From a virus (lineage: Duplodnaviria; Heunggongvirae; Uroviricota; Caudoviricetes): 12,632 nt of DNA. Shown here one piece after another: positions 1-12,632 of the stretch (the stretch's first letter is position 1; every line of letters begins with the position of its first letter). The notes below the pieces were generated by a model. It searched no databases, had not been told where the DNA came from, and saw only the letters and a list, made by a program, of their open reading frames with translations. A program made the position numbers and the translations under genes. The stretch lies in IMG/VR virus record IMGVR_UViG_2695420382_000014. The stretch is one strand, 5' to 3'.

Positions 1-39
1 AAAAGAACAAATGGTAGTGTCCGCTATTGCCAGTACACC

Positions 40-1101
40 TCAAGTATCAGTTGCGCTCTGATTTGTTCCTTCATCTTCAAACACGCCCTTTGTAGTCAGG
101 TATTCAGTAATGTATTTGTTCAGTGCCACAGGGTCTTTGTGAATGTCGATCGGACGTTCACGGACAAGGCCAAAAATAGTCTGGCGGTCGTAGCGAAGGG
201 CATCAGGCTGTTTGCGCATTGATGCCGAGATACGCTTCCAGTCTTCGCGGTCGTTGTCGATAACTTCATTTTTTGCCCAGCGATGGATGCTGCCGTCAAT
301 GTTTCCGGCATCCACATCACCAGGCCAGAGAGCGTAGGCCAGTTCGTCATCCAGTGTTTTCCATGTCTGCTTGTATTCGCGATGAATGGCAGCAATGGCC
401 GGGCTGATTTTTCCTGTTGAATTTTCAGTGTGCTGTTGATTGGCTCTGGCACGGGCGAGATCAACAACAGACGTGTATTTTCCGGTTTCCTTGCGTTCAC
501 CTTCGCGACATTTTTTCCAGATGCGCATCTCTGCCTGAATTTCTGGCCATTTTGCACCAGGCTTACATTTATGCTTAATCCACCCGATGGCATGCAGTTT
601 AATCTCCGGACACATGGCGTTAACTTCTGGCATTTTCATCAACGCTTCAACGATATGTCCGTCGAATGTTGCCATGTCTTCCTGCAACAGTTCCTGCGCG
701 CTAATCACCATATCAACGGTGATGTTTTCACATGTGTCGAACTTAACCATGACAGCGTTCTGTACTTCAGGGGCCAGCTTGTCAAAAGTGACGTTCATCG
801 GTTCGGATTCAGTCTCAACCGGGACAAAGGAAGCAGACTCCTCATCCCAGCGGTTTTCCTGCATATATTCAGCATCCCAGGAATCGAGGGCAGGGCGGGG
901 TATACCAGGTTTATCCTCGCAGACAATAAATTTATAAGCGCAGTCCTGAGCAGCCGGATAATGTTCCAGGAATTGCCAGTGAAATTTTGCGCGGGCGCGG
1001 CGTTCGTCGCCGGCTTCAATGGCAGTGGCTACAGGTTTAGCGCCTTCTTCTTTTGTTGCCTTTTCGTCCGGAATGGCGGCGCAAATAAAGACTTTACTCA
1101 T
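40..1101 (-). CDS. Hypothetical prophage protein, 353 aa, acidic, function unknown; last gene of the leftward operon in this window
   Basis: Long uninterrupted minus-strand ORF; GAGGT Shine-Dalgarno about 9 nt upstream of the ATG at 1101; same orientation as the upstream Rha and small ORFs. No family motif recognised by eye. Confidence 0.6.
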   Translation of the reverse strand: MSKVFICAAIPDEKATKEEGAKPVATAIEAGDERRARAKFHWQFLEHYPAAQDCAYKFIVCEDKPGIPRPALDSWDAEYMQENRWDEESASFVPVETESEPMNVTFDKLAPEVQNAVMVKFDTCENITVDMVISAQELLQEDMATFDGHIVEALMKMPEVNAMCPEIKLHAIGWIKHKCKPGAKWPEIQAEMRIWKKCREGERKETGKYTSVVDLARARANQQHTENSTGKISPAIAAIHREYKQTWKTLDDELAYALWPGDVDAGNIDGSIHRWAKNEVIDNDREDWKRISASMRKQPDALRYDRQTIFGLVRERPIDIHKDPVALNKYITEYLTTKGVFEDEGTNQSATDT

Positions 1102-1194
1102 TTTGTTTTAACCTCATTACAGATTTAAGGGTGAACAAATCCCTGCCATTGCTGGCATATAAAAATGAAACCGGATATTTATTACGTGGCTGCT

Positions 1195-1386
1195 TTAAAG
1201 ACCTGCCGGGACTTCTTTATTATCCTGGTGAATGATTTTATCAACCGGATAACAGTTACCGGGAATTTTCTGTTCAGCTGCAGCAGCCACGCATTCTTTC
1301 ATGGAGTTGTATACTCCGGTAACCAGTTCAGCTGGTTCGCCCGTATTAAGAATAACGGTCAGAACGAGTGCAAATGCTGTATTCAT
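1195..1386 (-). CDS. Small protein (63 aa) with N-terminal hydrophobic segment (MNTAFALVLTVILNTG), possible membrane or secreted peptide
   Basis: Start taken at internal ATG 1384-1386, which overlaps the upstream ORF stop as ATGA (translational coupling). The track ORF 1195..1440 extends further 5' but lacks that coupling. Confidence 0.4.
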   Translation of the reverse strand: MNTAFALVLTVILNTGEPAELVTGVYNSMKECVAAAAEQKIPGNCYPVDKIIHQDNKEVPAGL

Positions 1387-1571
1387 CGCCAGCATCCTTT
1401 TTGCATCAGACGCAAACGAGCCAGCATTGAAACAATGCATATTTTATTTAATGACTCCCGTTCGTGTTTTCTCTTGTTAATGGCATCTTCAGTAAATACC
1501 GTGTTACTGATAGTGACACCAATTTCAAAACAACCTTCAGTCGTATTAACGTTTGGTAATAACGTTTCCAT
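1383..1571 (-). CDS. Small hypothetical protein (62 aa)
   Basis: ATG at 1571 with GAGGA about 8 nt upstream; lies 11 nt downstream of the Rha stop; stop overlaps the next start (ATGA). Operon context is the only support. Confidence 0.4.
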   Translation of the reverse strand: METLLPNVNTTEGCFEIGVTISNTVFTEDAINKRKHERESLNKICIVSMLARLRLMQKGCWR

Positions 1572-1581
1572 TATCGCGTCC

Positions 1582-2139
1582 TCAACAATGAATTTTGAGT
1601 AATTGCTCTACAGTCATATTTTTAATTGCGCCCCGGTTAACAAGAGTCCATCCCTGTTCTTCCAGATAAAACCGGAAAGTCTCCATGGTACAGACCCGTG
1701 CGCCATCAGGAACGGTTTCGGTGAATCTGATGTTGCCGCGTTCGTCGAAGTGAACAACCAGGGTGCGGCCATCGCCTGGAATTATTTTGTCAGTGGGTGG
1801 GGTGTTATTCTGGCGCAGTTCGGCCTCCATGCGATCGAACTCAGCAATGTAGGCTTCTTTAAATGCAGCGGCTTTTTTGCCAGTGAATCCCATCACCAGG
1901 AAAACGAAGCCGTTTTTGGTGATTTGGTACATCGGGCGTTTTTCGCCTTTGGCGTCAGTGTAGGTGACGTCCTCAAAATTGAGGGCGTTAAATTCAGGTG
2001 AGCATTCAGTATTTGCGATGGCACGTAACACATTGTCGTGACGCTTGCCAAAGAACTCTGCGATCGCAATAGACGTAGTGACAGCGCGACCATTTTCGAT
2101 GGTTACGTCAGGGTGAGAAAGGGCAGGGATAGTAGCCAT
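1582..2139 (-). CDS. Rha-family phage regulatory protein (185 aa)
   Basis: N-terminal segment VTIENGRAVTTSIAIAEFFGKRHDNVLRAIAN resembles the Phage_pRha signature. Start placed at internal ATG 2137-2139 (GAGGAT upstream), because the longer track ORF to 2436 would read through a sigma70-like promoter and a hairpin plus U-run. Confidence 0.65.
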   Translation of the reverse strand: MATIPALSHPDVTIENGRAVTTSIAIAEFFGKRHDNVLRAIANTECSPEFNALNFEDVTYTDAKGEKRPMYQITKNGFVFLVMGFTGKKAAAFKEAYIAEFDRMEAELRQNNTPPTDKIIPGDGRTLVVHFDERGNIRFTETVPDGARVCTMETFRFYLEEQGWTLVNRGAIKNMTVEQLLKIHC

Positions 2140-2308
2140 GATGGCATCCTCGAGTGATAAGTTAATTAACTCACCACCGAGGTTTTCCACGACCATAAGG
2201 GTGGTGTGACGTACAGGGGTGGAAATACCGGTCACTCGAGAACCCGGCCAGTCTTGCGACTGCCCTGCACATCCCACCATAATTTGAATGGAGCTGTGCA
2301 TTACGCAT

Positions 2309-2331
2309 AAAAAAACCGCTTCAGCGCGGCT
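2309..2331 (-). terminator. Weak intrinsic-terminator-like hairpin plus U7 run in the Rha leader (minus strand)
   Basis: Minus-strand RNA ...AGCCGCGCUGAAGCGG UUUUUUU: CCGC/GCGG stem 2316-2329 followed by the A-run 2309-2315 on the plus strand (U-run on minus). Stem is short (4-6 bp). Confidence 0.3.
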
Positions 2332-2391
2332 ATGCGCTCGAGTAACGTTCGGGTTTCCACGCCCGGCACCCGTTTTATAAGGTGCAGGTGC

Positions 2392-2420
2392 ACTATAATT
2401 CCACCCGTTCTGGTTTTCAA
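2392..2420 (-). promoter_or_regulatory. Sigma70-like promoter candidate reading leftward toward Rha
   Basis: Minus strand -35 TTGAAA (plus coords 2415-2420), 17-nt spacer, -10 TATAGT (2392-2397). A perfect TATAAT also lies on the plus strand at 2394-2399. Confidence 0.4.
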
Positions 2421-2458
2421 TAGCTACATTCAACATTTTCTCTCACCTTTCATCACCG

Positions 2459-2625
2459 AAGTGAATTTTGTTGATGCGGTGCCTGGTGCCTCCAGGTGAC
2501 GTTAACCAGTTAACAATTAACGCCGGATACAGGGAAACCCATAACCACCCGATACGGGGGAACTAATCGCTTTTTAACTGTGCCGCGTGCGCTGAGCCGC
2601 ATTCACCGCATCACAAAATTCACTT
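2459..2625. repeat. Pair of about 22-bp inverted repeats flanking a roughly 122-bp spacer upstream of the Rha promoter
   Basis: 2459-2481 AAGTGAATTTTGTTGATGCGGTG versus 2604-2625 CACCGCATCACAAAATTCACTT, whose reverse complement matches with one indel. The spacer contains GTTAAC x2 and a CCTGG-N5-CCAGG palindrome. Confidence 0.6.
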
Positions 2626-2867
2626 TAAAAAGGGCGGACATCAGCCAGCAATGAAACTGATGCCGCCAAAGGTACCAATCAACATGGAGTGTTGTGGCGT
2701 GGTTGTCACTTAAGCGTATGGTCAACCTGACAACCCGGTGTCCTCAACGGGGAAGGAATAACTCCGCCATACTTACCGCCGCGTCATTTCGCGTTGTGTG
2801 CCTGCTTTTAACCACGTCAGGCGAGGTGGTATCCTTCTTATCCCGAATAACCAAGAAGGAAATCTAT

Positions 2868-3068
2868 ATGACTAAAGAAGAATTTGTCTCTTATATTTTT
2901 GATAAAACGGTTGAAATGTATGCCGCTACTTACGGGTCCTGTAATCCTCTGAATAAACCAGAGGGAAAAGATGATTTCGACAAAATTTACCGCTTCTTGG
3001 AGGACCGCTATATCAAAAGCTTAGAGGACGCAGGGATCAAATCCCCAGTGAAGTCACCATTGTCCTGA
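2868..3068 (+). CDS. Small AT-rich hypothetical protein (66 aa), moron-like
   Basis: ATG 2868 with AAGGA Shine-Dalgarno 6 nt upstream; AT-rich by eye relative to neighbours. The track ORF from 2694 starts with GTG and has no SD. Confidence 0.45.
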   Translation: MTKEEFVSYIFDKTVEMYAATYGSCNPLNKPEGKDDFDKIYRFLEDRYIKSLEDAGIKSPVKSPLS

Positions 3069-3402
3069 GAACTTGCAGAACGTCATGATCATAACTTCCA
3101 TCCAAACCGCGACGGCGAATTGCTTCTCGTATTACCGGAAGCAGTTCGCTGGAAATCTCGGTGCATATTTCACCTGATAATACGCTTGGCTCAAGTGAGA
3201 ATATTGGTGAACTTACGGTCTTGGTCTCGACAGTTTCAGAGTCAGTGCCAACATTATAAAGCTCAACGAAAGCGGTCTTGATTTTCCGGGCCAGATCTTT
3301 TGCTGGCTCGCTTGCAATATCTTTCCCGATTTCTCGCAGCACAGAATGCAATGTATGAGCTGCTGTTTTCTGTACATCAGACGGTAAATCTTTAAATTCC
3401 AT
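3037..3402 (-). CDS. Hypothetical early-left protein (121 aa)
   Basis: Start at second ATG (3400-3402) with GAGG 6 nt upstream; sits 9 nt downstream of the YdaF-like stop; 3' end overlaps the convergent plus-strand gene by about 32 nt. Confidence 0.45.
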   Translation of the reverse strand: MEFKDLPSDVQKTAAHTLHSVLREIGKDIASEPAKDLARKIKTAFVELYNVGTDSETVETKTVSSPIFSLEPSVLSGEICTEISSELLPVIREAIRRRGLDGSYDHDVLQVLRTMVTSLGI

Positions 3403-3413
3403 CGTCAGCCTCA

Positions 3414-3566
3414 TCAGTCAGTGTTTCTGGCTAACCAGCAACGCGCGCCAGATTCGGTTTTAAACGTTTTGCTTTTGGTATACGTCATGGCGGTAAACGT
3501 TCCATCCTGGTTAGGGAACACGCCGCACACCAGAGATTCGTTGTTGCCAAGATCGATAGTATCCAT
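3414..3566 (-). CDS. Small YdaF-like (DUF1391-like) prophage protein, 50 aa
   Basis: Internal ATG at 3564-3566 has GAGG 5 nt upstream; the upstream ATG at 3620 has no SD. Sequence MDTIDLGNNESLV... resembles small Rac-type early-left proteins as recalled from memory. Confidence 0.5.
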   Translation of the reverse strand: MDTIDLGNNESLVCGVFPNQDGTFTAMTYTKSKTFKTESGARCWLARNTD

Positions 3567-3745
3567 GCTGACCTCATTTCCCCTTAACGCCGGGGTGGCG
3601 GAACAAAAAACCTGCTGCATAGTTAAAGATTGAACCCTGCCGTCATGTTCTTACGCCTCGGGCTGGCTACTTAACCCCTGACCACTGTCTGGTAACTCGA
3701 AGTATTGCCCTGCATTCTGTGGGGCGGGGTGGGTTGACGCCTGAA

Positions 3746-3786
3746 AAAATAGCATCATTATTTTTTGATGTAAATAGCATCGCTAT
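3746..3786 (-). promoter_or_regulatory. PL-like leftward promoter overlapped by two repressor-operator-like palindromes
   Basis: Minus strand -35 TTTACA (3769-3774), 17-nt spacer, -10 TATTTT (3746-3751). Operators: ATAGCatcGCTAT at 3774-3786 (perfect inverted repeat) and ATAGCatcATTAT at 3749-3761, centres 25 bp apart. Confidence 0.5.
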
Positions 3787-3801
3787 TGTTTTTGTTGGGG
3801 C

Positions 3802-3826
3802 AAGAAAAAACCACCCTAAGGTGGTT
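3802..3826 (-). terminator. Rho-independent terminator ending the repressor-antitoxin-toxin transcript
   Basis: Minus-strand RNA AACCACC-UUAG-GGUGGUU followed by UUUUCUUG: 7-bp perfect stem at 3809-3826 plus U-run, 17 nt downstream of the toxin stop. Confidence 0.6.
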
Positions 3827-3842
3827 CTGTCGGCGGGAATAA

Positions 3843-4133
3843 TTAACTGTTTTTGCCTGGATACTGTCTTCGAGAATGCACAATATTTACTACTTCTATG
3901 CTTGATGCTGTTACTCGGTAAAGGATGATGTAGTTAGGATGAGTTACAATTTCACGAAGACCAAGAACTCGCTCGCTTGGAGGATACAGGTAAGGATGCT
4001 CTGTGAGCGGCAAAACGGATGTTTCAATTCGAATTTTCATTCTGCGTGCTGCCGCGGGATTTTCTTTAGCTATGTAGGCTACGATCTGGCGCAAATCATC
4101 ACGAGCAGATGGTAGCCATAAAACGGGTAACAT
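3843..4133 (-). CDS. parE: ParE/RelE-family type II toxin (96 aa)
   Basis: Matches the ParE/RelE pattern by eye (ARDDLRQIVAYIAKENPAAARRM...GLREIV..NYIILYRV...IEVVNIVHSRRQ). Start codon overlaps the upstream small ORF's stop (TAATG). Confidence 0.75.
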   Translation of the reverse strand: MLPVLWLPSARDDLRQIVAYIAKENPAAARRMKIRIETSVLPLTEHPYLYPPSERVLGLREIVTHPNYIILYRVTASSIEVVNIVHSRRQYPGKNS

Positions 4134-4327
4134 TATTCACCTCTGTGAGTTGCAGCAGCAATTTGGGCAATAATTTGTTCCATTTCCGCCATTACCTCAT
4201 CATGCGGAATCGCCGGGCGGGGATCCGCGAGGCTTGCTGCTACTTTGGCCCGCAGCCATTCGTTGTAACTATTTTCTTGCTCAACTGTCTCAAATTCTGA
4301 AACCATTGGGGAAAGGACTGTACTCAT
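4133..4327 (-). CDS. Small acidic antitoxin candidate (64 aa), PaaA2-like
   Basis: Immediately upstream of and coupled to the ParE-like gene; GAGGAG Shine-Dalgarno; small acidic protein. The PaaA2 assignment rests on operon architecture recalled from the E. coli O157 PaaR2-PaaA2-ParE2 system, not on a recognised motif. Confidence 0.6.
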   Translation of the reverse strand: MSTVLSPMVSEFETVEQENSYNEWLRAKVAASLADPRPAIPHDEVMAEMEQIIAQIAAATHRGE

Positions 4328-4346
4328 TTTACATATCTCCTCTGAT

Positions 4347-4847
4347 TTAGGCGCGACGGCCTTTTTGTGCAGCTAACCACCGCGCAACCGTACGATCCAT
4401 TGATTCTTTTTTATCTTTCATCTCCTGAAGCATGTGTTCTTGATCTTCTTTCGGAAAAGCTCTGAACGTATGGATTAAATCTCGTTCCATCGGCTCTACG
4501 GCAAACGGTAGTTCATCCTCTGTTTGTTCTGTGTCTGCTGGTAATGCGACTATGTTATCTTGCTGTGGTTCTCGACAATACATCCTTGCAATTTGCAGCA
4601 AATCTACCATGTCTGGCCTGATTGACTCAGGGGGAACTTTCAGTAAGCCAGCAAACTTTAGAACAGCCTCAAGGTTTAGTGGGGTTTGACCATTTAGGTA
4701 GTGACTTACCGCCCCTTGTGTTGAAAACCCCATAATTTCCGCCGCACGTTCCTGAGTCAATCCCAACTGAGATTTCTTTGCCATCCAGATTTCTTTCAGT
4801 CTTCTGGCGGCGTTGAGGTCGGTGTCTGACAATGATTTTCTTTTCAT
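4347..4847 (-). CDS. XRE-family HTH repressor (cI-like, RacR/PaaR2-like), 166 aa
   Basis: HTH_XRE motif LGLTQERAAEIMGFSTQGAVSHYLNG; divergent from a Cro-like gene; operator palindromes in the intergenic region. Start chosen at ATG 4845-4847 (MKRKSL...); the track start at 4877 is GTG. Confidence 0.8.
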   Translation of the reverse strand: MKRKSLSDTDLNAARRLKEIWMAKKSQLGLTQERAAEIMGFSTQGAVSHYLNGQTPLNLEAVLKFAGLLKVPPESIRPDMVDLLQIARMYCREPQQDNIVALPADTEQTEDELPFAVEPMERDLIHTFRAFPKEDQEHMLQEMKDKKESMDRTVARWLAAQKGRRA

Positions 4848-4857
4848 ACATCCAATT

Positions 4858-4924
4858 CTAATAAGATTGCTAATCACTTTGAAATAGCATCACTATTTAC
4901 TTTTAAAAATAACAGTGCTATTAA
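4858..4924. promoter_or_regulatory. OR-like divergent promoter/operator region between repressor and cro-like gene
   Basis: Operators ATAGCatcACTAT (4884-4896) and ATAACagtGCTAT (4909-4921), centres 25 bp apart. Candidate rightward promoter -35 TTTACT 4896-4901 and -10 TATTAA 4919-4924. Candidate leftward promoter -35 TTTCAA (4879-4884) and -10 TATTAG (4858-4863), giving a near-leaderless repressor mRNA. Confidence 0.45.
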
Positions 4925-4958
4925 TTATGCATTGGTAACACATCACATAGGGCGGATT

Positions 4959-5222
4959 ATGAATCTTGGAGAATATTTGCATCATTTTCATATAACCCAG
5001 AGTTCATTTGCTGAGATTGTTGGCGCATCCCAAGGGATGGTCAGCCACGTTATAACGGGGCGTGCAAAACTTACAGGAGAAAAAATATTACGTTGGTGTG
5101 AAGCAACGGGATGGGTGGTGACCCCACATGAGATTGACAGTAAAACCTACCCCAACCCAACTGACGGCTTGCCTGCTGAGTTTCAGGCTAACACACAACC
5201 ATCGGCGGGGGTTGATTCATGA
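4959..5222 (+). CDS. Cro-like HTH protein (YdaS-like), 87 aa
   Basis: Divergent from the repressor; HTH-like segment SQGMVSHVITGRAKLTGEKILRWCEATGWVVTP; ATG 4959 preceded by AGGGCGG; stop overlaps the next start (ATGA). The track start at 4932 is TTG. Confidence 0.7.
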   Translation: MNLGEYLHHFHITQSSFAEIVGASQGMVSHVITGRAKLTGEKILRWCEATGWVVTPHEIDSKTYPNPTDGLPAEFQANTQPSAGVDS

Positions 5223-5644
5223 AAATCAAGCATGAACACATCCGCATGGCGATGAAAGCCTGGGCGCATCCGGACGGTGAAAAAGTTCCGGCAGCTGAAA
5301 TAACCAGGGTTTATTTCGAACTGGGAATGACGTTTCCGGTTCTGCATAACGACAGCAAGCACAACACGCTTTATCTCAACACCCAAAAGATTTTCCGTTG
5401 GCTGGATAAAGACACCCCTGACGCTGTTGAAAAAATTCAGGCGTTGTTACCTGCGATCGAAAGGGCAATGCCACCTCCGCTGGTGGCTCGAATGCGCAGC
5501 CACAGTTCAGCTTATTTTCGGGAACTGGTGGAGACGCATGAACGACTGGTGAGAGACGCTGATGATTTTGTCGCAGTGGCAATCGCCGGTTTCAATCAGA
5601 TGAACCGTGGTGGCCCGGCAGGAAATGCTGTGGCAGTACATTGA
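5219..5644 (+). CDS. YdaT-like protein (141 aa), CII-like regulator or putative toxin of Rac-type prophages
   Basis: Position and size match the Rac racR-ydaS-ydaT arrangement as recalled; translationally coupled to the Cro-like gene. Not confirmed by search. Confidence 0.6.
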   Translation: MKIKHEHIRMAMKAWAHPDGEKVPAAEITRVYFELGMTFPVLHNDSKHNTLYLNTQKIFRWLDKDTPDAVEKIQALLPAIERAMPPPLVARMRSHSSAYFRELVETHERLVRDADDFVAVAIAGFNQMNRGGPAGNAVAVH

Positions 5645-5715
5645 CTGACAATAGCCATATCGAATCGCTCCCGGCAACTCGTGAGTAAAAAGATTCGGTA
5701 TCAGAAGAGGTGAGT

Positions 5716-6780
5716 ATGGCTAACGCCTGGCTCAGATTATGGCATGACATGCCAAATGACCCTAAGTGGCGAACAATTGCCAGGGTGTCAGGGCAGCCAA
5801 TTGCAACAGTGATGGCAGTGTATATCCACCTCCTGGTGAGCGCGTCACGAAATGTCACGCGAGGTCACATTGATGTCACGACAGAAGATTTGGCAAGTGC
5901 GCTCGACGTGACAGAAGAGGTAATTGATTCAATTTTGCAGACGATGCAGGGGCGGGTACTTGATGGTGATTTAATCACTGGATGGGAAAAACGCCAGGTG
6001 CTTAAAGAGGACAACGGCAATATTTCGCAAACCGCAAAATCTCCTGCAGAGCGCAAGAGGGCGCAGCGAGAGAGGGAAAGAAAGCGGGAACAAAATGGCG
6101 ATTGTCACGGCGCGTCACGAAATGTCACGCACATGTCACGACGAGTCACGACAGATACAGATAAAGATACAGATAAAGAAGATCAAAACACTATGGTCCA
6201 TGGCGTAAAAAACGCCACGAACCAGGCAGGGGATGTTCAGACCGTCAATCCTGGTCAGCCAGCAGGCTCGACACCGGAAGCCGATTCAGCGTATGCGCTG
6301 AAAGCCGATTCGGGCGCTGTGCAGCAGGTGATGACCGCAAGGCCGGAGCAATCACTCCAACTGCAGCAGCCTGAAGCCGATTCCGCCATTCAGCGGGAAG
6401 CCGATCGGGTAGCCCCGGAAAACACCGGGCAGCCTGTGGGACGAGTGGATTATCCGGATGTGTTCGAACAGGTCTGGCGGGAATACCCGTTGCGTGCCGG
6501 GGCAAACCCGAAGAAATCCGCATTCAGTGCCTGGAAGGCCAGATTGCGCGAGGGGGTGCCACCAGAGACCATGCTGGATGGTGTGAGGCGTTACGCGAGA
6601 TACCTGGCGGCGACCGGGAAAGCGGGAACGGAATTTGTTCAGCGAGCGACGACGTTTTTTGGGCCGGACCGGAATTTTGAAAACCCCTGGTTGCTCCCGG
6701 TAAGCGGCACGAACAACCAGCGTTGTGTGAATCATATTTCTGAACCGGATACCGAAATTCCGCCGGGATTCAGGGGGTGA
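5716..6780 (+). CDS. Phage replication initiation protein (354 aa) with DnaT-like C-terminus and internal iterons
   Basis: ATG 5716 with GAGGTG Shine-Dalgarno (track start 5710 is GTG). C-terminal NHISEPDTEIPPGFRG resembles the E. coli DnaT C-terminus as recalled. Two internal GTCACG repeat clusters; followed by a DnaC-like gene. Confidence 0.75.
   Translation: MANAWLRLWHDMPNDPKWRTIARVSGQPIATVMAVYIHLLVSASRNVTRGHIDVTTEDLASALDVTEEVIDSILQTMQGRVLDGDLITGWEKRQVLKEDNGNISQTAKSPAERKRAQRERERKREQNGDCHGASRNVTHMSRRVTTDTDKDTDKEDQNTMVHGVKNATNQAGDVQTVNPGQPAGSTPEADSAYALKADSGAVQQVMTARPEQSLQLQQPEADSAIQREADRVAPENTGQPVGRVDYPDVFEQVWREYPLRAGANPKKSAFSAWKARLREGVPPETMLDGVRRYARYLAATGKAGTEFVQRATTFFGPDRNFENPWLLPVSGTNNQRCVNHISEPDTEIPPGFRG
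5841..5880. repeat. Iteron-like cluster 1: four GTCAC(G/A) direct repeats at 10-11 bp spacing
   Basis: GTCACG at 5844, 5854, 5875 and GTCACA at 5864; inverted copy CGTGAC at 5907-5912. The 20-mer CGCGTCACGAAATGTCACGC at 5841-5860 is identical to 6111-6130. Confidence 0.55.
6104..6150. repeat. Iteron-like cluster 2: five GTCACG direct repeats at 10-11 bp spacing
   Basis: GTCACG at 6104, 6114, 6124, 6135 and 6145, followed by A-rich tandem GATACAGATAAA x2 (6151-6180). Confidence 0.55.
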
Positions 6781-6786
6781 TGTGGC

Positions 6787-7533
6787 ATGAAAAACATTGC
6801 GGCAGCCGGGGTTCTTGAACGTATTCACAGACTTGCACCACAGGGGGCGGTTCCACCGTACCGGACGGTGGAGGAGTGGCGGGAATGGCAACTTGCTGAA
6901 GGACGAAAACGCAGCGAGGAGATTAACCGCCAGAATCGCCAGTTGCGGGTGGAAAAAATCCTGAATCGTTCGGGCATCCAGCCTCTGCACAGCAAATGCT
7001 CGTTTGCGAATTATCAGGTGCAGAACGACGGGCAAAAATACGCGCTGAGCCAGGCCAAATCCATAGCTGACGAACTGATGACCGGGTGCACGAATTTTGT
7101 GTTCAGCGGTAAAACCGGCACCGGGAAAAATCACCTTGCAGCGGCGATGGGTAACTGGCTGATGGCGAAGGGGCGCAGCGTGATTATCGTCACCGTGTCT
7201 GATGTCATGAGCGTGTTGCATGACAGCTACGACAACGGCAAATCCGGTGAAAAATTTTTACAGGAGCTTTGCGGGGTTGATTTGCTGGTCCTGGATGAAA
7301 TAGGCATTCAGCGGGAGACGAAAAACGAGCAGGTGGTATTGCACCAGATAATTGATCGCCGGACAGCATCACTGTGCAGTGTCGGGATGTTAACAAACCT
7401 GAATCATGCCGCAATGAGCACGCTTCTTGGTGAGAGGATTATGGACCGCATGACCATGAACGGTTGTCGGTGGGTGACGTTTAACTGGGATAGCTGGCGT
7501 TCAAATGTCAGCTTTCCGGGAGTTGTGAAGTAA
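6787..7533 (+). CDS. DnaC-like replicative helicase loader (AAA+), 248 aa
   Basis: Strong resemblance to E. coli DnaC: Walker A FSGKTGTGKNHLAAA, Walker B LLVLDEIG, C-terminal WVTFNWDSWRS. Starts 7 nt after the initiator stop. Confidence 0.9.
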   Translation: MKNIAAAGVLERIHRLAPQGAVPPYRTVEEWREWQLAEGRKRSEEINRQNRQLRVEKILNRSGIQPLHSKCSFANYQVQNDGQKYALSQAKSIADELMTGCTNFVFSGKTGTGKNHLAAAMGNWLMAKGRSVIIVTVSDVMSVLHDSYDNGKSGEKFLQELCGVDLLVLDEIGIQRETKNEQVVLHQIIDRRTASLCSVGMLTNLNHAAMSTLLGERIMDRMTMNGCRWVTFNWDSWRSNVSFPGVVK

Positions 7534-7554
7534 TTTTTGTTGGAGGATGTTTTA

Positions 7555-8280
7555 ATGGAAACTGTATTTGACGCACTGAAAGCACTGAAAAGAGCCTCTT
7601 CACATGTGGTGGCGTCCCGCCTTGGAATCAGCCGTGAAGATGCGGTCAACGAACTGTGGAAACTGAAGCGCCGTGGTGAAGCGGATAACAAGGGTTCGAT
7701 GTGGTGGCTGATTCAGGCTGGTGAAAGTGAACCAGTGTCACCGGTACCGAAAGTGACAGCGCAAATGCTGACTGAGGCGATTGAACAACATGGCCCACAA
7801 ACGGCGGATGAGCTGGCACTGATGTTCGGGATTACCTCCCGCCGGGCGAATTCATCGCTGGCCATGGCAATCAGCAAAGGGCGTCTGATTCGCGTGAATC
7901 AGGGCGGTAAATTTCGGTACTGCATACCGGGCGCTGATTTACCGGCAGAGCCGAAAGCCGCATCCATAGCGGAAACGGATGGTAAAGTCTTTCCTCAGCC
8001 AGCAGGTGTTGCGTTACCGGTACAGGAAGCTGCAACACAGGAAGAAATTAAAACAGAAACTGTGGCGGACATTGTGCAGTCGTTGCCATCGTTCACCGAA
8101 ACGCAAGCGGATGACCTGGTTTTACCATCGCTGCATATGGCAAACCGCGAACTGCGTCGGGCGAAAAGTCATGTCCAGAAGTGGGAGCGTGTCTGCGCCG
8201 CGTTGCGGGAGCTGAACAAGCACCGGGATATTGTTCGACAGATTGTCGATTCCTCCGGTCGTATTGTGTCGGAAAAGTGA
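7555..8280 (+). CDS. Hypothetical phage protein (241 aa) with two winged-helix-like segments and a coiled-coil-like C-terminus
   Basis: ATG 7555 with GGAGG Shine-Dalgarno 8 nt upstream (track start 7537 is TTG); two internally similar helix-turn-helix-like segments. Confidence 0.6.
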
Positions 8281-8295
8281 TTGCCGGGGGCGCTT

Positions 8296-8718
8296 ATGGC
8301 AAAAGTATTTACACAGGAAGAGCGGGAAAAAATTAAGGGGCAGGTTGTTGAACTCGTACGCCAGAGTGGGCGCGAGACGTTACGACAACTGGAAGCTAAA
8401 ACCGGGGCGACAAGATATTTAATAAGCGTTCTCGCCAGAGAGCTGGTTGCCAGTGGGGATGTATACAACTCTGGCTACGGGTTATTCCCGTCTGAACAGG
8501 CTCGTAAGGACTGGCAAAACGCCCGCAAAAAACTCTCAAGGGCAAATCTGAAGAAACCATCTGTGGTTGATCCTGACCTTATCTGGTCATTACCAGACGG
8601 AGAAATACGCCGCTACGACAGGCGTCAAAACATAATCTGTAGCGAGTGCCGGAAGAGTGAAGTTATGCAGCGTGTACCGGCTTTCTATCAGGGTGATTTT
8701 CAGGAGGCGGTACTGTGA
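8296..8718 (+). CDS. Hypothetical protein (140 aa): winged-helix-like N-terminus plus CxxC-containing tail
   Basis: ATG 8296 after a GGGGG run; the last 41 codons (8596-8718) form the first copy of a 192-bp tandem duplication. Confidence 0.55.
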   Translation: MAKVFTQEEREKIKGQVVELVRQSGRETLRQLEAKTGATRYLISVLARELVASGDVYNSGYGLFPSEQARKDWQNARKKLSRANLKKPSVVDPDLIWSLPDGEIRRYDRRQNIICSECRKSEVMQRVPAFYQGDFQEAVL

Positions 8719-8978
8719 GTGAAATTAGCTATCAGGCTTCAATTACCGCTGGCATTCGCATCAAAGGAGAGGAGCATGGAAATAAAAGACGGAGAAATAC
8801 GCCGCTACGACAGGCGCCTGAATATAATCTGTCGCGAGTGCCGGAAGAGCGAAGCTATGCAGCGTGTACTGGCTTTCTATCAGGGTAATTTTCAGGAGGC
8901 GATACTGTGAATGAAATTAGCTATCAGGCTTCAATTACCGCTGGCATTCGCATCAAAGGAGAGGAGCATGGAAATAAA
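8595..8978. repeat. Tandem duplication, 2 x 192 bp
   Basis: Unit 1 8595-8786 versus unit 2 8787-8978. The 123-bp coding-tail part is about 92% identical; the roughly 69-bp part carrying AAGGAGAGGAGC-ATG is near-identical (one mismatch). Confidence 0.85.
8776..8910 (+). CDS. Small CxxC protein (44 aa) created by the tandem duplication
   Basis: Strong Shine-Dalgarno AAGGAGAGGAG then ATG 8776; product MEIKDGEIRRYDRRLNIICRECRKSEAMQRVLAFYQGNFQEAIL is a diverged copy of the upstream protein's tail. Confidence 0.4.
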   Translation: MEIKDGEIRRYDRRLNIICRECRKSEAMQRVLAFYQGNFQEAIL

Positions 8979-9324
8979 ACCAGAAGATGAGTTAAGCAAT
9001 ATCGTTTTATTTCCGGTAAAAGAGGATGACCCTCGTAATCAGGTTAATTTTCTTTATGAGCCATCGGAAAGACCATATTGCCATCACGCCTCTGTACGGG
9101 TTGACGAAAAAGAGCGTCAGGTCCGCTGTAAAATTTGCGGTGCAGTTGTGGAGCCATTTGACTGGATGCTCTCTGTGGCGAAAAGAGAAACCAGACTGGC
9201 AGATGATGTAAGGCTCTTGCGCCAGGAGGAGCGGGAAAGGCGAAAAAATATAGAAAAGCTAATCCAGATTGAGCGTAATGCGAAAGCGCGGATACGCAGG
9301 GTGACAAAATATAGCCCCGAATAA
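8968..9324 (+). CDS. Hypothetical protein (118 aa) with zinc-ribbon-like motif and basic C-terminus
   Basis: Same SD/ATG module as the 44-aa gene (second repeat copy); contains C-H-H ... CKICG; C-terminus rich in R/E/K. Confidence 0.55.
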   Translation: MEIKPEDELSNIVLFPVKEDDPRNQVNFLYEPSERPYCHHASVRVDEKERQVRCKICGAVVEPFDWMLSVAKRETRLADDVRLLRQEERERRKNIEKLIQIERNAKARIRRVTKYSPE

Positions 9325-9538
9325 TCAAGGTTATTTCTGGAAGTCAAGTCGTGAGTGATGAGGACTAACAAATACGGTGAACTCGATAAAGAGATTCAGG
9401 ACGAACTGGAGGCCAGGAATGATTGACAAATCACCAAGTGAGTTCAGCTACAAAGATTTATTGTCATAACGGGTTATGAGATCGACTTGGTGCGTGATAT
9501 TCTTCGGGCCAGTTTGCTATGCGCCACCATGAGATGTT

Positions 9539-11371
9539 ATGGCCCGCATGTTTGATACATTAGGATTTTACATTATGAATGTGCAACATTTTGATTTTTT
9601 TACAGATAATGAGTTTTCTAATCTGGAAAGATATCAAACTTGTAAAGCCATGGCCAAAGGTTATGCGGGCAATTACAAAACCGGGCAGTCAAGGTTGATG
9701 CATGCCCGCTCATACTGCTTCAGCATCGTAGCTGCATATTGGGATACCCTTGCAAAAAAGCAAAAAAGCAGCATTAAAATGAGGGCAGTACCGCACACTG
9801 TTTACATAGAAGACATTCCATGTGATGCACGCGAGCTCGCTGAACGAACAGGTGAGCTTATTGCTCAATTTCCGGCGGAGGACGCTGGATATCTGATTGG
9901 GTCAATTTATACGGTAATGCTGCCATCCGCTTACCGTTCGGAATTGGGGGCTTACTATACCCCCCCACCTTTGGTAGCGCGTCTCTTGGACCTGGCTGAA
10001 AAGTCTGGTGTTGATTTTTCTCATGCATCGGTTATTGATCCTGCGTGTGGTGGCGGTGCATTTTTGGCACCAGTAGCCATTCGAATGTTAAAAAAAGACA
10101 AGGGGTCTTCCCCTGAATGGATGTTGAGGAGAATCAGTCGTCGTTTAAAGGGGATAGAAATCGATCCATTTGCGGCTTGGATGAGTTTGGTATTGCTCGA
10201 ATCTGTACTAATGCCACTATGTGTAAAGGTAAAACGTAGATTGCCTGAAGATACAATTATTGTTGCTGATGCGCTTCAGCAAGATAAATTTTCTGGTTAT
10301 GATCTTGTGGTAGGGAATCCGCCTTACGGACGTGTCACTCTCGATATTAAAACGAGAGAAAAATATTCTCGTTCGTTATTTGGTCATGCAAATCTATATG
10401 GATTGTTCACCGACTTAGCTGTTCGCATGGTTAAAGAGAAAACAGGAGTTATTGCATTTCTTACGCCAACTTCTTTTCTTGGTGGGCAGTATTTCACCGC
10501 GCTGCGAACCCTTTTGACCGAAAAAACTACTCCGTATGCCCTTGATTTCGTCACTGACAGGGATGGGGTCTTTGACGATGTTCTCCAGGAAACAATGTTG
10601 ACAGCATTCAAGGCGGGAGAACATAAAGTTCGGGCCCAGGTATCCTCACTTGTCCCTAAGGGGTTGAACAAAGCAAAAATTGAGAAAATAGGTAATGTTG
10701 ATATAGAAAAAGGTGGAGCAACGTGGCTTTTGCCACGCGTTAAAGATGATGCCTGTTTTCTTAATGTATTAAAACAGATGTCTACGCGTTTAGCTGATCT
10801 GGGATACTCAGTCTCTACAGGTCAGTTAGTCTGGAATCGATTTAAGTCGCAGTTGCGTACGACGAAAGGAAAAAATAGCTACCCATTAGTCTGGGCGGAA
10901 TCAATAACTTCAGCTGGTTTTCGTTTTAGTGCAGACAGAAAAAATCATGTTCCCTATATCGATATAACCCCACAACAGGGTTTCCTTGTGACAAAATCTG
11001 AATGTGTGCTTGTTCAGCGGACAACATCGAAGGAACAGGACAGAAGGATTTTAGCGGCAATTTTACCTCAGGGATTTATAGATGAAACTGGTGGCGTAGT
11101 AGTTGAAAACCATATTAATATTGTATATTCAAACGGATTGTTCTCTGCGGTTCGCCCTGATGTTATTGATATGCTACTTAATTCGCATGTTGTCGATCGG
11201 GCGTTCAGGTGTATAAGCGGAAGTGTTGCTGTTTCGGCCTATGAATTGAATTCAATCCCGTTGCCTTCTCTGGAGCAGGTGATGGAGATTCAATCGTTAA
11301 TTGATGCTGGCGTCCACAGACGGATTATTGAGAGAACTATCGCTGGTTTCTATGGAGTGATGATTGCATGA
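9539..11371 (+). CDS. Gamma-class N6-adenine DNA methyltransferase (Eco57I/TaqI-like MTase domain), 610 aa
   Basis: Motif order X (GAYYTPPPLV), I (VIDPACGGGAFL), IV (VGNPPYG), then a roughly 350-aa C-terminal target-recognition-like region. Start is uncertain: ATG 9539, or ATG 9575 which has TAGGAT 8 nt upstream. Confidence 0.85.
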   Translation: MARMFDTLGFYIMNVQHFDFFTDNEFSNLERYQTCKAMAKGYAGNYKTGQSRLMHARSYCFSIVAAYWDTLAKKQKSSIKMRAVPHTVYIEDIPCDARELAERTGELIAQFPAEDAGYLIGSIYTVMLPSAYRSELGAYYTPPPLVARLLDLAEKSGVDFSHASVIDPACGGGAFLAPVAIRMLKKDKGSSPEWMLRRISRRLKGIEIDPFAAWMSLVLLESVLMPLCVKVKRRLPEDTIIVADALQQDKFSGYDLVVGNPPYGRVTLDIKTREKYSRSLFGHANLYGLFTDLAVRMVKEKTGVIAFLTPTSFLGGQYFTALRTLLTEKTTPYALDFVTDRDGVFDDVLQETMLTAFKAGEHKVRAQVSSLVPKGLNKAKIEKIGNVDIEKGGATWLLPRVKDDACFLNVLKQMSTRLADLGYSVSTGQLVWNRFKSQLRTTKGKNSYPLVWAESITSAGFRFSADRKNHVPYIDITPQQGFLVTKSECVLVQRTTSKEQDRRILAAILPQGFIDETGGVVVENHINIVYSNGLFSAVRPDVIDMLLNSHVVDRAFRCISGSVAVSAYELNSIPLPSLEQVMEIQSLIDAGVHRRIIERTIAGFYGVMIA

Positions 11372-12450
11372 ATCTGCCTGTTGTTCCCCCATTGAATGTT
11401 ATCCGGGAAAGATTACAATTAATTTTCCCTGAAGGGACTGAGAATCGTGGATATTTAATTCGGGAAATAGCTGCAAAAACAATTTTTGTCATGTTTTATG
11501 CTGGTGCGGTTGAGGGGCTGGGGCGATGGATAAGGCCCAGCCAGGTTGTAAGTATGGGAGATTCGCAGGCTGCTCTTACTGATGATGCGTCCAGAGAAAG
11601 CTGGGTAAAGATGACTTTCTCTAAACAAAAGATAAGGCCTGCTGATGCATGGTATGCGGAAAATACGCGTGAGCCAATACGTGATGAAACTATAAAAAAT
11701 GGCCTAATACCTTGCAATGCAATTGTTGAGCGTAAAGGTATACCCACCACATCCTCTCGTCCTCGTTACAGTTTGAATCGCTCTTTTGCAGCACTCTTTG
11801 ATGCCGGGCTTGAAGGAGATTCGCTGCTGAGTGCAATAAGTTCCTGGCAAGAAAATCATTTGAACAAAGCCGCTCTTGCTAGGTTGCGTTTATTGAAATC
11901 AGGGGCAGTGATTGCTGCTGATGCCGTAGTCGTCACTTTCCCAAATGGAGAGAAGAGAACTTTAGCTCCGGGCCCGTCAAGTACAATAGCTAAGGCCGTC
12001 ATCGAAGTTTTTGCTCCTAATTTTCTTAAGAATCCAACTGTGCTCTGGTTGTCTGAATCCGGGAATAAAGTTGTTGCTCAGGATGATGTATTGGCAAAAG
12101 CATTGGGGCTGAATATTGATGCCTCAAAAGCACTTCCAGATATTATTTTGATTGATTTGGGAGAGGACCGAACGGGTTCGGACATGCTTGTAGTTTTCAC
12201 TGAAGTAGTTGCGACAGATGGGCCTATAAACAGGGAACGAAAAGTTACTCTCACTCATTTGGCTATTGACGCTGGGTTCAGCGAGAAAAATCTTGCATTC
12301 CTTACGGCATTTATGGACAGAAGTGCTCTGCCTTTTAAAAAGGCAATACCAGAATTGGCGTGGGGATCTTATGCATGGTTTGCTTCTGAACCGGAGCACT
12401 TAATTGATCTTCGGGATGGTTATCCGGTAAAGATCAGCCAGAGAAAATGA
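11368..12450 (+). CDS. Putative restriction endonuclease partner of the methyltransferase (possibly BsuBI/PstI-like), 360 aa
   Basis: Start overlaps the methyltransferase stop (ATGA); same AT-rich composition by eye. The nuclease assignment is inferred from context; no unambiguous PD-(D/E)xK or HNH motif was found by eye. Confidence 0.5.
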   Translation: MNLPVVPPLNVIRERLQLIFPEGTENRGYLIREIAAKTIFVMFYAGAVEGLGRWIRPSQVVSMGDSQAALTDDASRESWVKMTFSKQKIRPADAWYAENTREPIRDETIKNGLIPCNAIVERKGIPTTSSRPRYSLNRSFAALFDAGLEGDSLLSAISSWQENHLNKAALARLRLLKSGAVIAADAVVVTFPNGEKRTLAPGPSSTIAKAVIEVFAPNFLKNPTVLWLSESGNKVVAQDDVLAKALGLNIDASKALPDIILIDLGEDRTGSDMLVVFTEVVATDGPINRERKVTLTHLAIDAGFSEKNLAFLTAFMDRSALPFKKAIPELAWGSYAWFASEPEHLIDLRDGYPVKISQRK

Positions 12451-12632
12451 CCAAAGTTTGATATCCGCCACGCCCTGAAGGATGGGGGTTTTACGGTGCA
12501 CTGGATAAAAAATCGGTTTCATAGATTTGCCCACCGTGGTATACGCCTGCGATAAAAACTTTATTGTCATCAACGGCAAAAGCAATAATTGTTCTGTGGC
12601 GGGGTGATGCTGCCAACTTACTGATTTAGTGT

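Follow-up and report, generated by a model that had tools for sequence, protein, structure and literature searches.

A probable type II restriction-modification cassette of the PstI/BsuBI/SdaI family in the remnant of a lambdoid prophage

Introduction

PstI and BsuBI, the founding members of the Pfam families PF06616 and PF17728, have the target CTGCAG; the methyltransferase (M) and endonuclease (R) genes are divergently arranged in the PstI system and reportedly co-directional in that of BsuBI. SdaI of Streptomyces is an 8-bp cutter with the cleavage site CCTGCAGG, and its Lys-251 is said to be the lysine of the catalytic triad; YenI is reportedly a fused PstI isoschizomer. PF06616 is a family of PD-(D/E)XK type II restriction endonucleases (PMC3424549). 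The closest characterised relative of the system described here is EcoGIII, known from the Stx2 prophages of E. coli O104:H4 C227-11, O111 and O145 (target CTGC(m6A)G): According to two papers, it methylates and cleaves CTGCAG and protects against lambda-like phages (PMC6602927, PMC3893438, citing Fang et al. 2012), and the former reports that EcoGIII methylation changes the expression of about 1,900 genes.

The window analysed here (the whole stretch of 12,632 nucleotides of the viral record IMGVR_UViG_2695420382_000014) contains a methyltransferase gene followed by a gene for a 360-residue protein (Table 1). Since this partner belongs to the BsuBI/PstI family of restriction endonucleases, the pair is interpreted as a conventional two-gene type II restriction-modification (R-M) system of the PstI/BsuBI/SdaI family (probability about 0.88), which forms a mobile cargo module of approximately 3 kb (about 9416-12455) in the variable slot that separates the nin/Q region of a lambdoid prophage from its replication genes. 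An earlier note, made from the letters of the window alone, had already delimited both open reading frames correctly and had regarded them as a type II R-M cassette acquired horizontally by prophage DNA; this core reading is supported by the present analysis.

Table 1. Features of the R-M module and its right-hand flank (positions in the window).
Feature	Position	Strand	Remarks
Leader carried along with the cassette, likely promoter and 5' UTR	9416..9574	+	Delimited by homology boundaries
M, gamma-class N6-adenine DNA methyltransferase gene	9539..11371	+	Longest ORF 610 aa; 598 aa from ATG 9575
Translational-coupling junction	11353..11371	+	GGAG Shine-Dalgarno within the 3' end of M, then ATGA stop/start overlap
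R, BsuBI/PstI-family type II restriction endonuclease gene	11368..12450	+	360 aa; Pfam, PADLOC and SdaI matches
ParE/RelE toxin gene remnant	12492..12602	-	C-terminal 36 codons only; right-hand neighbour of the module, outside it
Start of element encoding IS1 transposase domains	12603..12632	.	Cuts the prophage 152 bp past the R stop codon

Results

Comparison with described systems

Like EcoGIII, the cassette is carried by a lambdoid prophage, combines a gamma-class N6-adenine methyltransferase with a BsuBI/PstI-family endonuclease in the order M then R, and joins the two genes by a 4-bp ATGA overlap (1324/1327 in the EcoGIII locus L003). The identity to EcoGIII is approximately 26% in M and in R each, and similarity at the DNA level is absent; EcoGIII adjoins the cI region, whereas the present cassette is located downstream of the replication genes. 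The EcoGIII proteins are shorter (M: 489 versus 598-610 aa; R: 317 versus 360 aa), the EcoGIII endonuclease being devoid of about 40 N-terminal residues. With PstI and BsuBI the cassette shares the two-domain architecture of the endonuclease and the gamma-class N6-adenine methyltransferase partner; unlike in these systems, R and M are 40-100 residues longer and other PADLOC profiles match best (the profiles of approximately 317 aa for the endonuclease and 494 aa for the methyltransferase, presumably those of the PstI group, gave E-values of 2e-28 and 2e-50 with the cassette proteins). The YenI-type fused proteins (PADLOC PDLC03359, profile of 840 aa) consist of the same modules, with M matching profile positions 28-257 and R positions 595-831; in contrast to the fused type, M and R are separate polypeptides here that are joined only by translational coupling. 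A type IIG or fused M-R enzyme was rejected for the present cassette, as the two open reading frames lie in different frames with the M stop within the R start.

Prophage context and boundaries of the module

The host element is a decayed lambdoid prophage, most likely of Shigella sonnei. In the matching chromosomes it is an IS1-truncated remnant from which the late genes are absent; the term prophage in the earlier note applies with this qualification. Precisely at 12603, the window parts from two intact prophages (L001 and L009); it is identical to another locus (L005) across this junction, where an InsA/DDE_Tnp_IS1 open reading frame comes next. The 30 bases from 12603 to 12632 are presumably the IS1 terminal inverted repeat. 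The translation of the adjacent ParE remnant (RHRTIIAFAVDDNKVFIAGVYHGGQIYETDFLSSAP, then the stop) is identical to the C-terminal end of ParE in E. coli FDAARGOS_943, where the protein is intact and 103 aa long.

On the left-hand side, the match to a phage without the cassette ends at 9339, and the homology among cassettes begins at 9416 (versus Kluyvera) or 9466 (versus Citrobacter). The cargo interpretation is supported by these module boundaries and by the fact that a related phage has other contents in this slot. The GC content of the cassette is low in every host examined. The AT-richness that had previously been judged by eye is confirmed by computation: The GC content of the cassette is 0.436, compared with 0.487 for positions 1-9538; the replication genes next to it have 0.52. 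The GC3 values of the two genes (0.37 and 0.355) contrast with 0.44-0.62 for the five genes upstream, and GC3 of the pair is 0.36 versus 0.50-0.62 for its neighbours. In Burkholderia, and in four other hosts among the enterobacteria, the GC content of the homologous cassettes is likewise lower than that of their flanks, by 6-14 points.

The methyltransferase

The motifs X, I and IV follow each other in M in the gamma-class order that the earlier note had described (YYTP at residue 139, DPACGGG at 167, NPPY at 260). The Pfam domains Eco57I (PF07669; 51.4 bits, cut-off 25.3, E 1.7e-13) and N6_Mtase (PF02384; 37.6 bits, cut-off 20.4, E 2.1e-9) were both matched, and the PADLOC profile MTase_II PDLC03338 was covered from position 2 to 602 of 604 (1.8e-300). 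The similarity to M.EcoGIII (26% identity across 355 residues, E 7e-27) includes the C-terminal target-recognition half. Membership of the Alw26I/Eco31I-type and BREX PglX families of NCBIfam was rejected, as these partial, sub-threshold matches reflect the shared core of gamma-class methyltransferases. Because of a 1-nt indel between ATG 9539 and ATG 9575 in the Kluyvera homologue and the lengths of the homologues (596-598 aa), the downstream codon is the probable start of M.

The restriction endonuclease

The R protein consists of an N-terminal helix-turn-helix (HTH) DNA-binding domain and a C-terminal nuclease domain of the PD-(D/E)XK type. The profile search that the earlier note had proposed for the partner returned both BsuBI/PstI families far over threshold: BsuBI_PstI_RE (PF06616) was matched at residues 188-349 (152.2 bits, cut-off 27, E 9.3e-45, profile positions 2-152 of 154) and BsuBI_PstI_RE_N (PF17728) at residues 10-172 (106.6 bits, cut-off 27, E 1.2e-30). 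The PADLOC profile REase_II PDLC03589 matched end to end (2.8e-128), and the identical protein in RefSeq bears the name "BsuBI/PstI family type II restriction endonuclease"; among the NCBIfam models, none was found for R. The only solved structure that matched is SdaI (PDB 2ixs; phmmer E 1.8e-16, residues 96-349), which leaves the N-terminal ~95 residues of R uncovered.

The partner had been described as a protein of no obvious catalytic motif; this does not hold, as Pro-257, Asp-258 and Glu-279 align with PD233 and Glu-248 of SdaI. No variation was seen at these three residues among 24 members of the subfamily and EcoGIII; Lys-234 and Arg-291 are likewise invariant across the subfamily and EcoGIII. 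R also retains over 100 positions that do not vary within the subfamily. The position of SdaI Lys-251 is occupied by Ala-282, which is invariant in the subfamily and replaced by Thr in EcoGIII. The alanine in place of the triad lysine might count weakly against R activity: Since the biochemically active EcoGIII contains threonine there, this lysine is not family-defining. The invariant Lys-234 and Arg-291/Lys-292 are candidate stand-ins.

An AlphaFold model of R, built from an alignment of 24 sequences, had a mean pLDDT of 62.7; its confident part is the N-terminal HTH domain (79-93 over most of residues 1-160), and the nuclease core is disordered (below 50 at residues 179-267). SdaI was the sole significant Foldseek match of this model (E 1.7e-9, probability 1.00), with a TM-score of only 0.27-0.30 as a result of the low confidence of the modelled nuclease domain; in consequence, the fold assignment is mainly derived from sequence and Foldseek adds little to it.

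Leader, gene junction and control of expression

The leader contains the element TGaTATTCT at about 9494-9502, an inverted repeat (TCATAAC/GTTATGA, 9464-9479) and an AGGA Shine-Dalgarno sequence preceding ATG 9575. Positions 9470-9575 are near-identical in three cassettes, at an overall DNA identity of only about 80%. A scan of the plus strand upstream of M for consensus sigma-70 promoters found no site, and no stable RNA fold was predicted in the conserved M leader (z = 0.39). The leader may have a regulatory role, with TGaTATTCT as a candidate promoter element.

The ATGA overlap of M and R, noticed before, is directly legible at 11368-11371, where the M stop (TGA, 11369-11371) overlaps the R start (ATG, 11368-11370; ...GCATGAAT...). 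Kluyvera, Citrobacter and Serratia all keep the TATGGAGT...ATGA junction; in Klebsiella the junction is the same except that the two genes do not overlap.

A controller (C) protein gene had been noted as absent, and indeed none was found: The spacer at 9325-9538 (214 bp) contains no open reading frame of at least 50 codons, the nearest upstream one (137 codons) is a phage gene that also occurs in a phage without the cassette, and the 78-aa open reading frame preceding the Burkholderia homologue gave no HTH match in Pfam. A C-protein-controlled type II system was rejected, as no small HTH controller is located upstream of or overlapping R.

Distribution and recognition site

At least 1000 contigs, mostly named Shigella sonnei, encode exactly these M and R proteins, and most sequenced strains of this species seem to carry the system. 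Kluyvera, Citrobacter, Serratia, Klebsiella and Burkholderia have the same M-then-R module in prophages and islands; M and R stay paired in six genera, and their divergence runs in parallel (89/89, 86/84, 75/68 and 72/69% identity). Among 50,697 phage records, the cassette DNA had no match, and the protein search found only distant EcoGIII-type genes (27-28% identity).

A literature search for the recognition sequence of the subfamily, S. sonnei methylomes included, found nothing relevant. As the documented characterised relatives cut CTGCAG, a palindrome with a TGCA core would be the default guess for the target; an identity of 26% does not allow the specificity to be carried over from the CTGCAG enzymes. 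The palindrome counts in the window are too few to interpret (CTGCAG: 3, none of them in the cassette; ATGCAT: 6, including 4 in the cassette).

Discussion

According to the family membership of the two proteins, M would use SAM to methylate the N6 position of an adenine within a short target that is probably a palindrome; R would bind the same target via its N-terminal HTH domain and cleave unmethylated DNA at a Mg2+-dependent PD-(D/E)XK-type active site comprising Asp-258 and Glu-279. M would be translated first and R would start at the GGAG/ATGA-coupled site inside the end of M, so that it is plausibly the gene order, and not a C protein, that makes R lag behind M. For the host, the expected effects would be the restriction of incoming unmethylated phage or plasmid DNA and a post-segregational "addiction" disfavoring loss of the module.

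The earlier note had also considered that the 360-residue protein, if not of the BsuBI/PstI type or another known nuclease, might be an undescribed methyltransferase-linked effector. The sole point in favor of such a non-restriction function is that published biochemistry on the exact subfamily (~598/360 aa) was not found in the literature searched; the proposal is effectively refuted by the matches of both BsuBI/PstI Pfam domains, PF06616 and PF17728 (152 and 107 bits versus cut-offs of 27), by the full-length match to PDLC03589, the SdaI match and the RefSeq name, and by the homology to the active R.EcoGIII with aligned catalytic residues. Improbable, but less remote, is the alternative that the R-M system has decayed or fallen silent, in which case R would be inactive or unexpressed in the IS1-truncated, repressor-bearing stub and M would in effect be a solitary epigenetic methyltransferase. 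The loss of the late genes from the host element and the negative result of the consensus promoter search are compatible with this view, and a precedent for an epigenetic role is given by EcoGIII (about 1,900 affected genes, according to PMC6602927). However, the module brings along a conserved leader, which suggests that it has expression signals of its own, and R retains all subfamily-invariant residues and is identical and of full length in a very large number of isolates (at least 1000 contigs and 4192 index blocks). The dN/dS ratios against homologues, about 0.06 (M: 0.056-0.063; R: 0.055-0.062), indicate strong purifying selection on both genes and likewise argue against decay. In one assembly (GCA_040189005.1, locus L007) a frameshifted M stands beside an intact R, which, if real, would require a silent or inactive R in that strain; this lone frameshift is situated in a C7 homopolymer, a typical site of sequencing errors.

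The conventional R-M reading is therefore preferred, and the cassette is an ordinary system that is already annotated and catalogued. A further-going proposal is tentative, and we would rather bet against it: that the ~598/360-aa subfamily may recognise a site new to the PstI family (a new prototype specificity), that the module may also be an addiction element keeping the IS1-truncated stub fixed in Shigella sonnei, and that its genome-wide m6A marks might then affect gene expression, as is reported of EcoGIII.

The main value of the finding is a correct annotation, with little beyond. It adds another temperate-phage case of a PstI-family R-M system in the moron slot that follows the replication genes, parallel to EcoGIII in Stx phages. 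In view of its apparent presence in most sequenced S. sonnei, the R-M system may have an influence on the host range of phages, on phage therapy and on the transformation of this pathogen.

Family assignment of the two cassette proteins

The M-R cassette, formed by the methyltransferase gene M and its partner gene R, belongs to a known family; RefSeq already annotates it as BsuBI/PstI family, and a defence-system database has profiles dedicated to it. Both Pfam domains by which the BsuBI/PstI restriction endonuclease family is defined are found in the R protein, which the earlier note had regarded as an unknown partner: residues 10-172 match PF17728, the N-terminal HTH domain, with E 1.2e-30, and residues 188-349 match PF06616, the nuclease domain, with E 9.3e-45. 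Both scores greatly exceed the gathering cut-off of 27 bits. The PADLOC type II REase profile PDLC03589 is matched end to end (2.8e-128), and SdaI (2ixs; E 1.8e-16) is the only solved structure with a sequence match. The note's alternative of an undescribed methyltransferase-linked effector is thus effectively refuted by the profile search that the note had proposed as a check.

In the alignment to SdaI, P257-D258 and E279 of R are located opposite P232-D233 and E248, which were reportedly found to be catalytic by Tamulaitiene et al. in 2006; the R residues are invariant across 24 subfamily members and EcoGIII, a type II restriction-modification system of Stx2 prophages. Ala282 of R is positioned opposite SdaI K251; as the biochemically active EcoGIII has Thr there, the lysine appears to be no family requirement. 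PF06616 has been placed among the PD-(D/E)XK type II endonucleases (PMC3424549). The AlphaFold model of R, based on a shallow alignment, was confident in the N-terminal domain only; its only significant PDB match was SdaI (Foldseek E 1.7e-9, TM 0.27-0.30), a predicted fold similarity that weakly corroborates the family assignment.

The M protein contains YYTP (residue 139), DPACGGG (167) and NPPY (260) in the order of the gamma class and scores above the Pfam thresholds of both Eco57I (PF07669) and N6_Mtase (PF02384), which confirms its proposed identity as a gamma-class methyltransferase; the PADLOC profile MTase_II PDLC03338 gave 1.8e-300. The true start is probably ATG 9575, correcting 9539, because the homologues are 596-598 aa in length and the Kluyvera homologue has a 1-nt indel separating the positions of both ATGs; ATG 9575 is preceded by AGGA. 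A C7 homopolymer (~9960-9966) falls within the T-P-P-P codons of motif X. At one locus (L007; GCA_040189005.1, ~8590-8720) it is replaced by C6, and this 1-bp deletion divides M into ORFs of 133 and 428 aa and leaves R intact: either a sequencing error, for which a C7 run is a classic site, or a real M-minus, R-plus genotype.

Coordinates of annotated features in the window
Feature	Position	Strand	Basis or remark
M, 610-codon ORF	9539-11371	+	ORF reading
R, 360-codon ORF	11368-12450	+	ORF reading
ParE/RelE toxin gene remnant, last 36 codons	12492-12602	-	intact prophages have full ParE-ParD pair
IS1-type element start (junction)	12603		locus comparison
HTH_3 regulator or repressor	4347-4877	-	toxin-antitoxin arrangement
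PaaA2 antitoxin	4133-4327	-	boundary 4133 common with ParE gene
ParE toxin	3843-4133	-	boundary 4133 common with PaaA2 gene

Gene junction, leader and base composition

The proposed coupling overlap can be read directly in the sequence, the M stop codon lying within the R start (...GCATGAAT...), and the GGAG...ATGA junction is kept among enterobacterial homologues. The stretch 9464-9575 upstream of M contains an inverted repeat (TCATAAC/GTTATGA), a GATC site, two ATGAGAT repeats and a TGaTATTCT extended -10-like element. A scan upstream of M found no consensus sigma-70 promoter, and no stable RNA fold was predicted in the leader. The non-coding leader (9470-9575) is near-identical in the Kluyvera and Citrobacter cassettes, whose overall DNA identity is only ~80%; it may act as operator or promoter of a C-less system.

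The GC content of the cassette is 43.6% versus 48.7% in the left remainder of the window and 52% in the adjacent replication genes; GC3 reaches 0.36-0.37 in M and R and 0.44-0.62 in the five upstream genes. The AT-richness first judged by eye is therefore upheld by computation. Cassette GC lies 6-14 points below the flanks in every host examined, and the interpretation as horizontally acquired cargo is supported. A closely related phage, which has other small genes (one hok-like) at the position of the module, stops matching the window at 9339, and the cassettes of Kluyvera and Citrobacter lambdoid prophages match 9416-12455 and 9466-12410, respectively. From these match limits, the mobile unit measures ~3 kb and includes its own upstream leader.

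Distribution and genomic setting

Identical M and R proteins are each present on at least 1000 contigs of the protein collection, with names mostly of Shigella sonnei (e.g. 'BsuBI/PstI family type II restriction endonuclease [Shigella sonnei]'), from which the species of the matching chromosomes was inferred; in the assembly index, R is listed in 4192 blocks. Among 5426 complete E. coli genomes, only 2 harbor the cassette (99.3-99.9% identity), labeled in RefSeq as HsdM-family methyltransferase and BsuBI/PstI family type II restriction endonuclease. The matching chromosomes carry, in order, genes for a cI-like repressor and YdaT; the replication functions O and a DnaC/IstB-like protein; DUF1627, DUF977 and a 118-aa product; M and R; and IS1. 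Immediately beyond IS1, the host chromosome resumes with mannitol dehydrogenase-, YdfZ- and GntR-family genes, which we take to be ydfI, ydfZ and ydfH, and then genes for a short-chain dehydrogenase and an M3 peptidase.

Up to and across the IS1 junction, the window and these loci do not differ in sequence. The IS1-type element has removed ParD, the antitoxin, together with every late gene of the prophage. ParE is cut to its last 36 codons where intact prophages hold the full ParE-ParD pair, and the "prophage" is thus an IS1-truncated remnant without late genes. Of the proposed type II restriction-modification-like cassette carried as acquired cargo in a prophage, the first two parts thus stand, the host element being only a truncated remnant.

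In intact E. coli prophages, the module has the replication genes on one side and ParDE, DUF968, RusA and Q on the other. In Serratia marcescens (L013, 2208-5083), it is situated in a P2-like prophage between the gpA replication gene and portal/terminase genes, and in Klebsiella (L017, 4209-7086) in an island adjoining an IS3-family transposase and two ScoMcrA-like HNH (type IV restriction-like) genes; the module also occurs in the Burkholderia chromosome.

Elsewhere in the window, a three-gene toxin-antitoxin arrangement (3843-4877, minus strand) resembles paaR2-paaA2-parE2. A 192-bp tandem duplication (8595-8979; 2.0 copies, 94% identical) takes in the DUF977 gene at its 3' end and the following gene at its 5' end, so that an additional hybrid ORF of 63 codons (8719-8910) arises; a matching chromosomal locus (L005), which is elsewhere 98-99% identical in that region, lacks the duplication.

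Function, recognition site and proposed mechanism

Both proteins are full length compared with their PADLOC profiles. Their dN/dS versus the Kluyvera and Citrobacter homologues is 0.055-0.063 (dS > 1), and purifying selection on both genes is strong. R/M identities in four homologue pairs (89/89, 86/84, 75/68 and 72/69%) reveal an in-step divergence as expected for a co-adapted pair. Full length, purifying selection and in-step divergence support a predicted function; the L007 frameshift, the missing consensus promoter and the leader of presumed role would count against it or leave the matter open.

PstI and BsuBI cut CTGCAG, and SdaI cuts CCTGCAGG. The closest characterised system is EcoGIII, which has in common with the cassette the family of each protein, the M-then-R ATGA overlap and the prophage carrier; in contrast, its proteins are shorter, its prophage position is another and it has no DNA similarity to the cassette. 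CTGCAG is cut by each characterised relative for which documentation was found (EcoGIII: PMC6602927, PMC3893438); R and M are ~26% identical to the EcoGIII proteins, and this specificity is therefore not transferable. No recognition sequence for the cassette emerged from the literature search or from counts of sites in the window.

According to family membership, M would N6-methylate adenine within a short target, and R, bound to that target by its HTH domain, would cleave unmethylated DNA at a Mg2+-dependent active site formed around D258 and E279; the M-before-R balance would be set by gene order and translational coupling without a C protein. The module may help to retain the prophage stub in S. 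sonnei. The host would benefit because DNA that enters unmodified is restricted; post-segregational killing would lend stability to the module itself.
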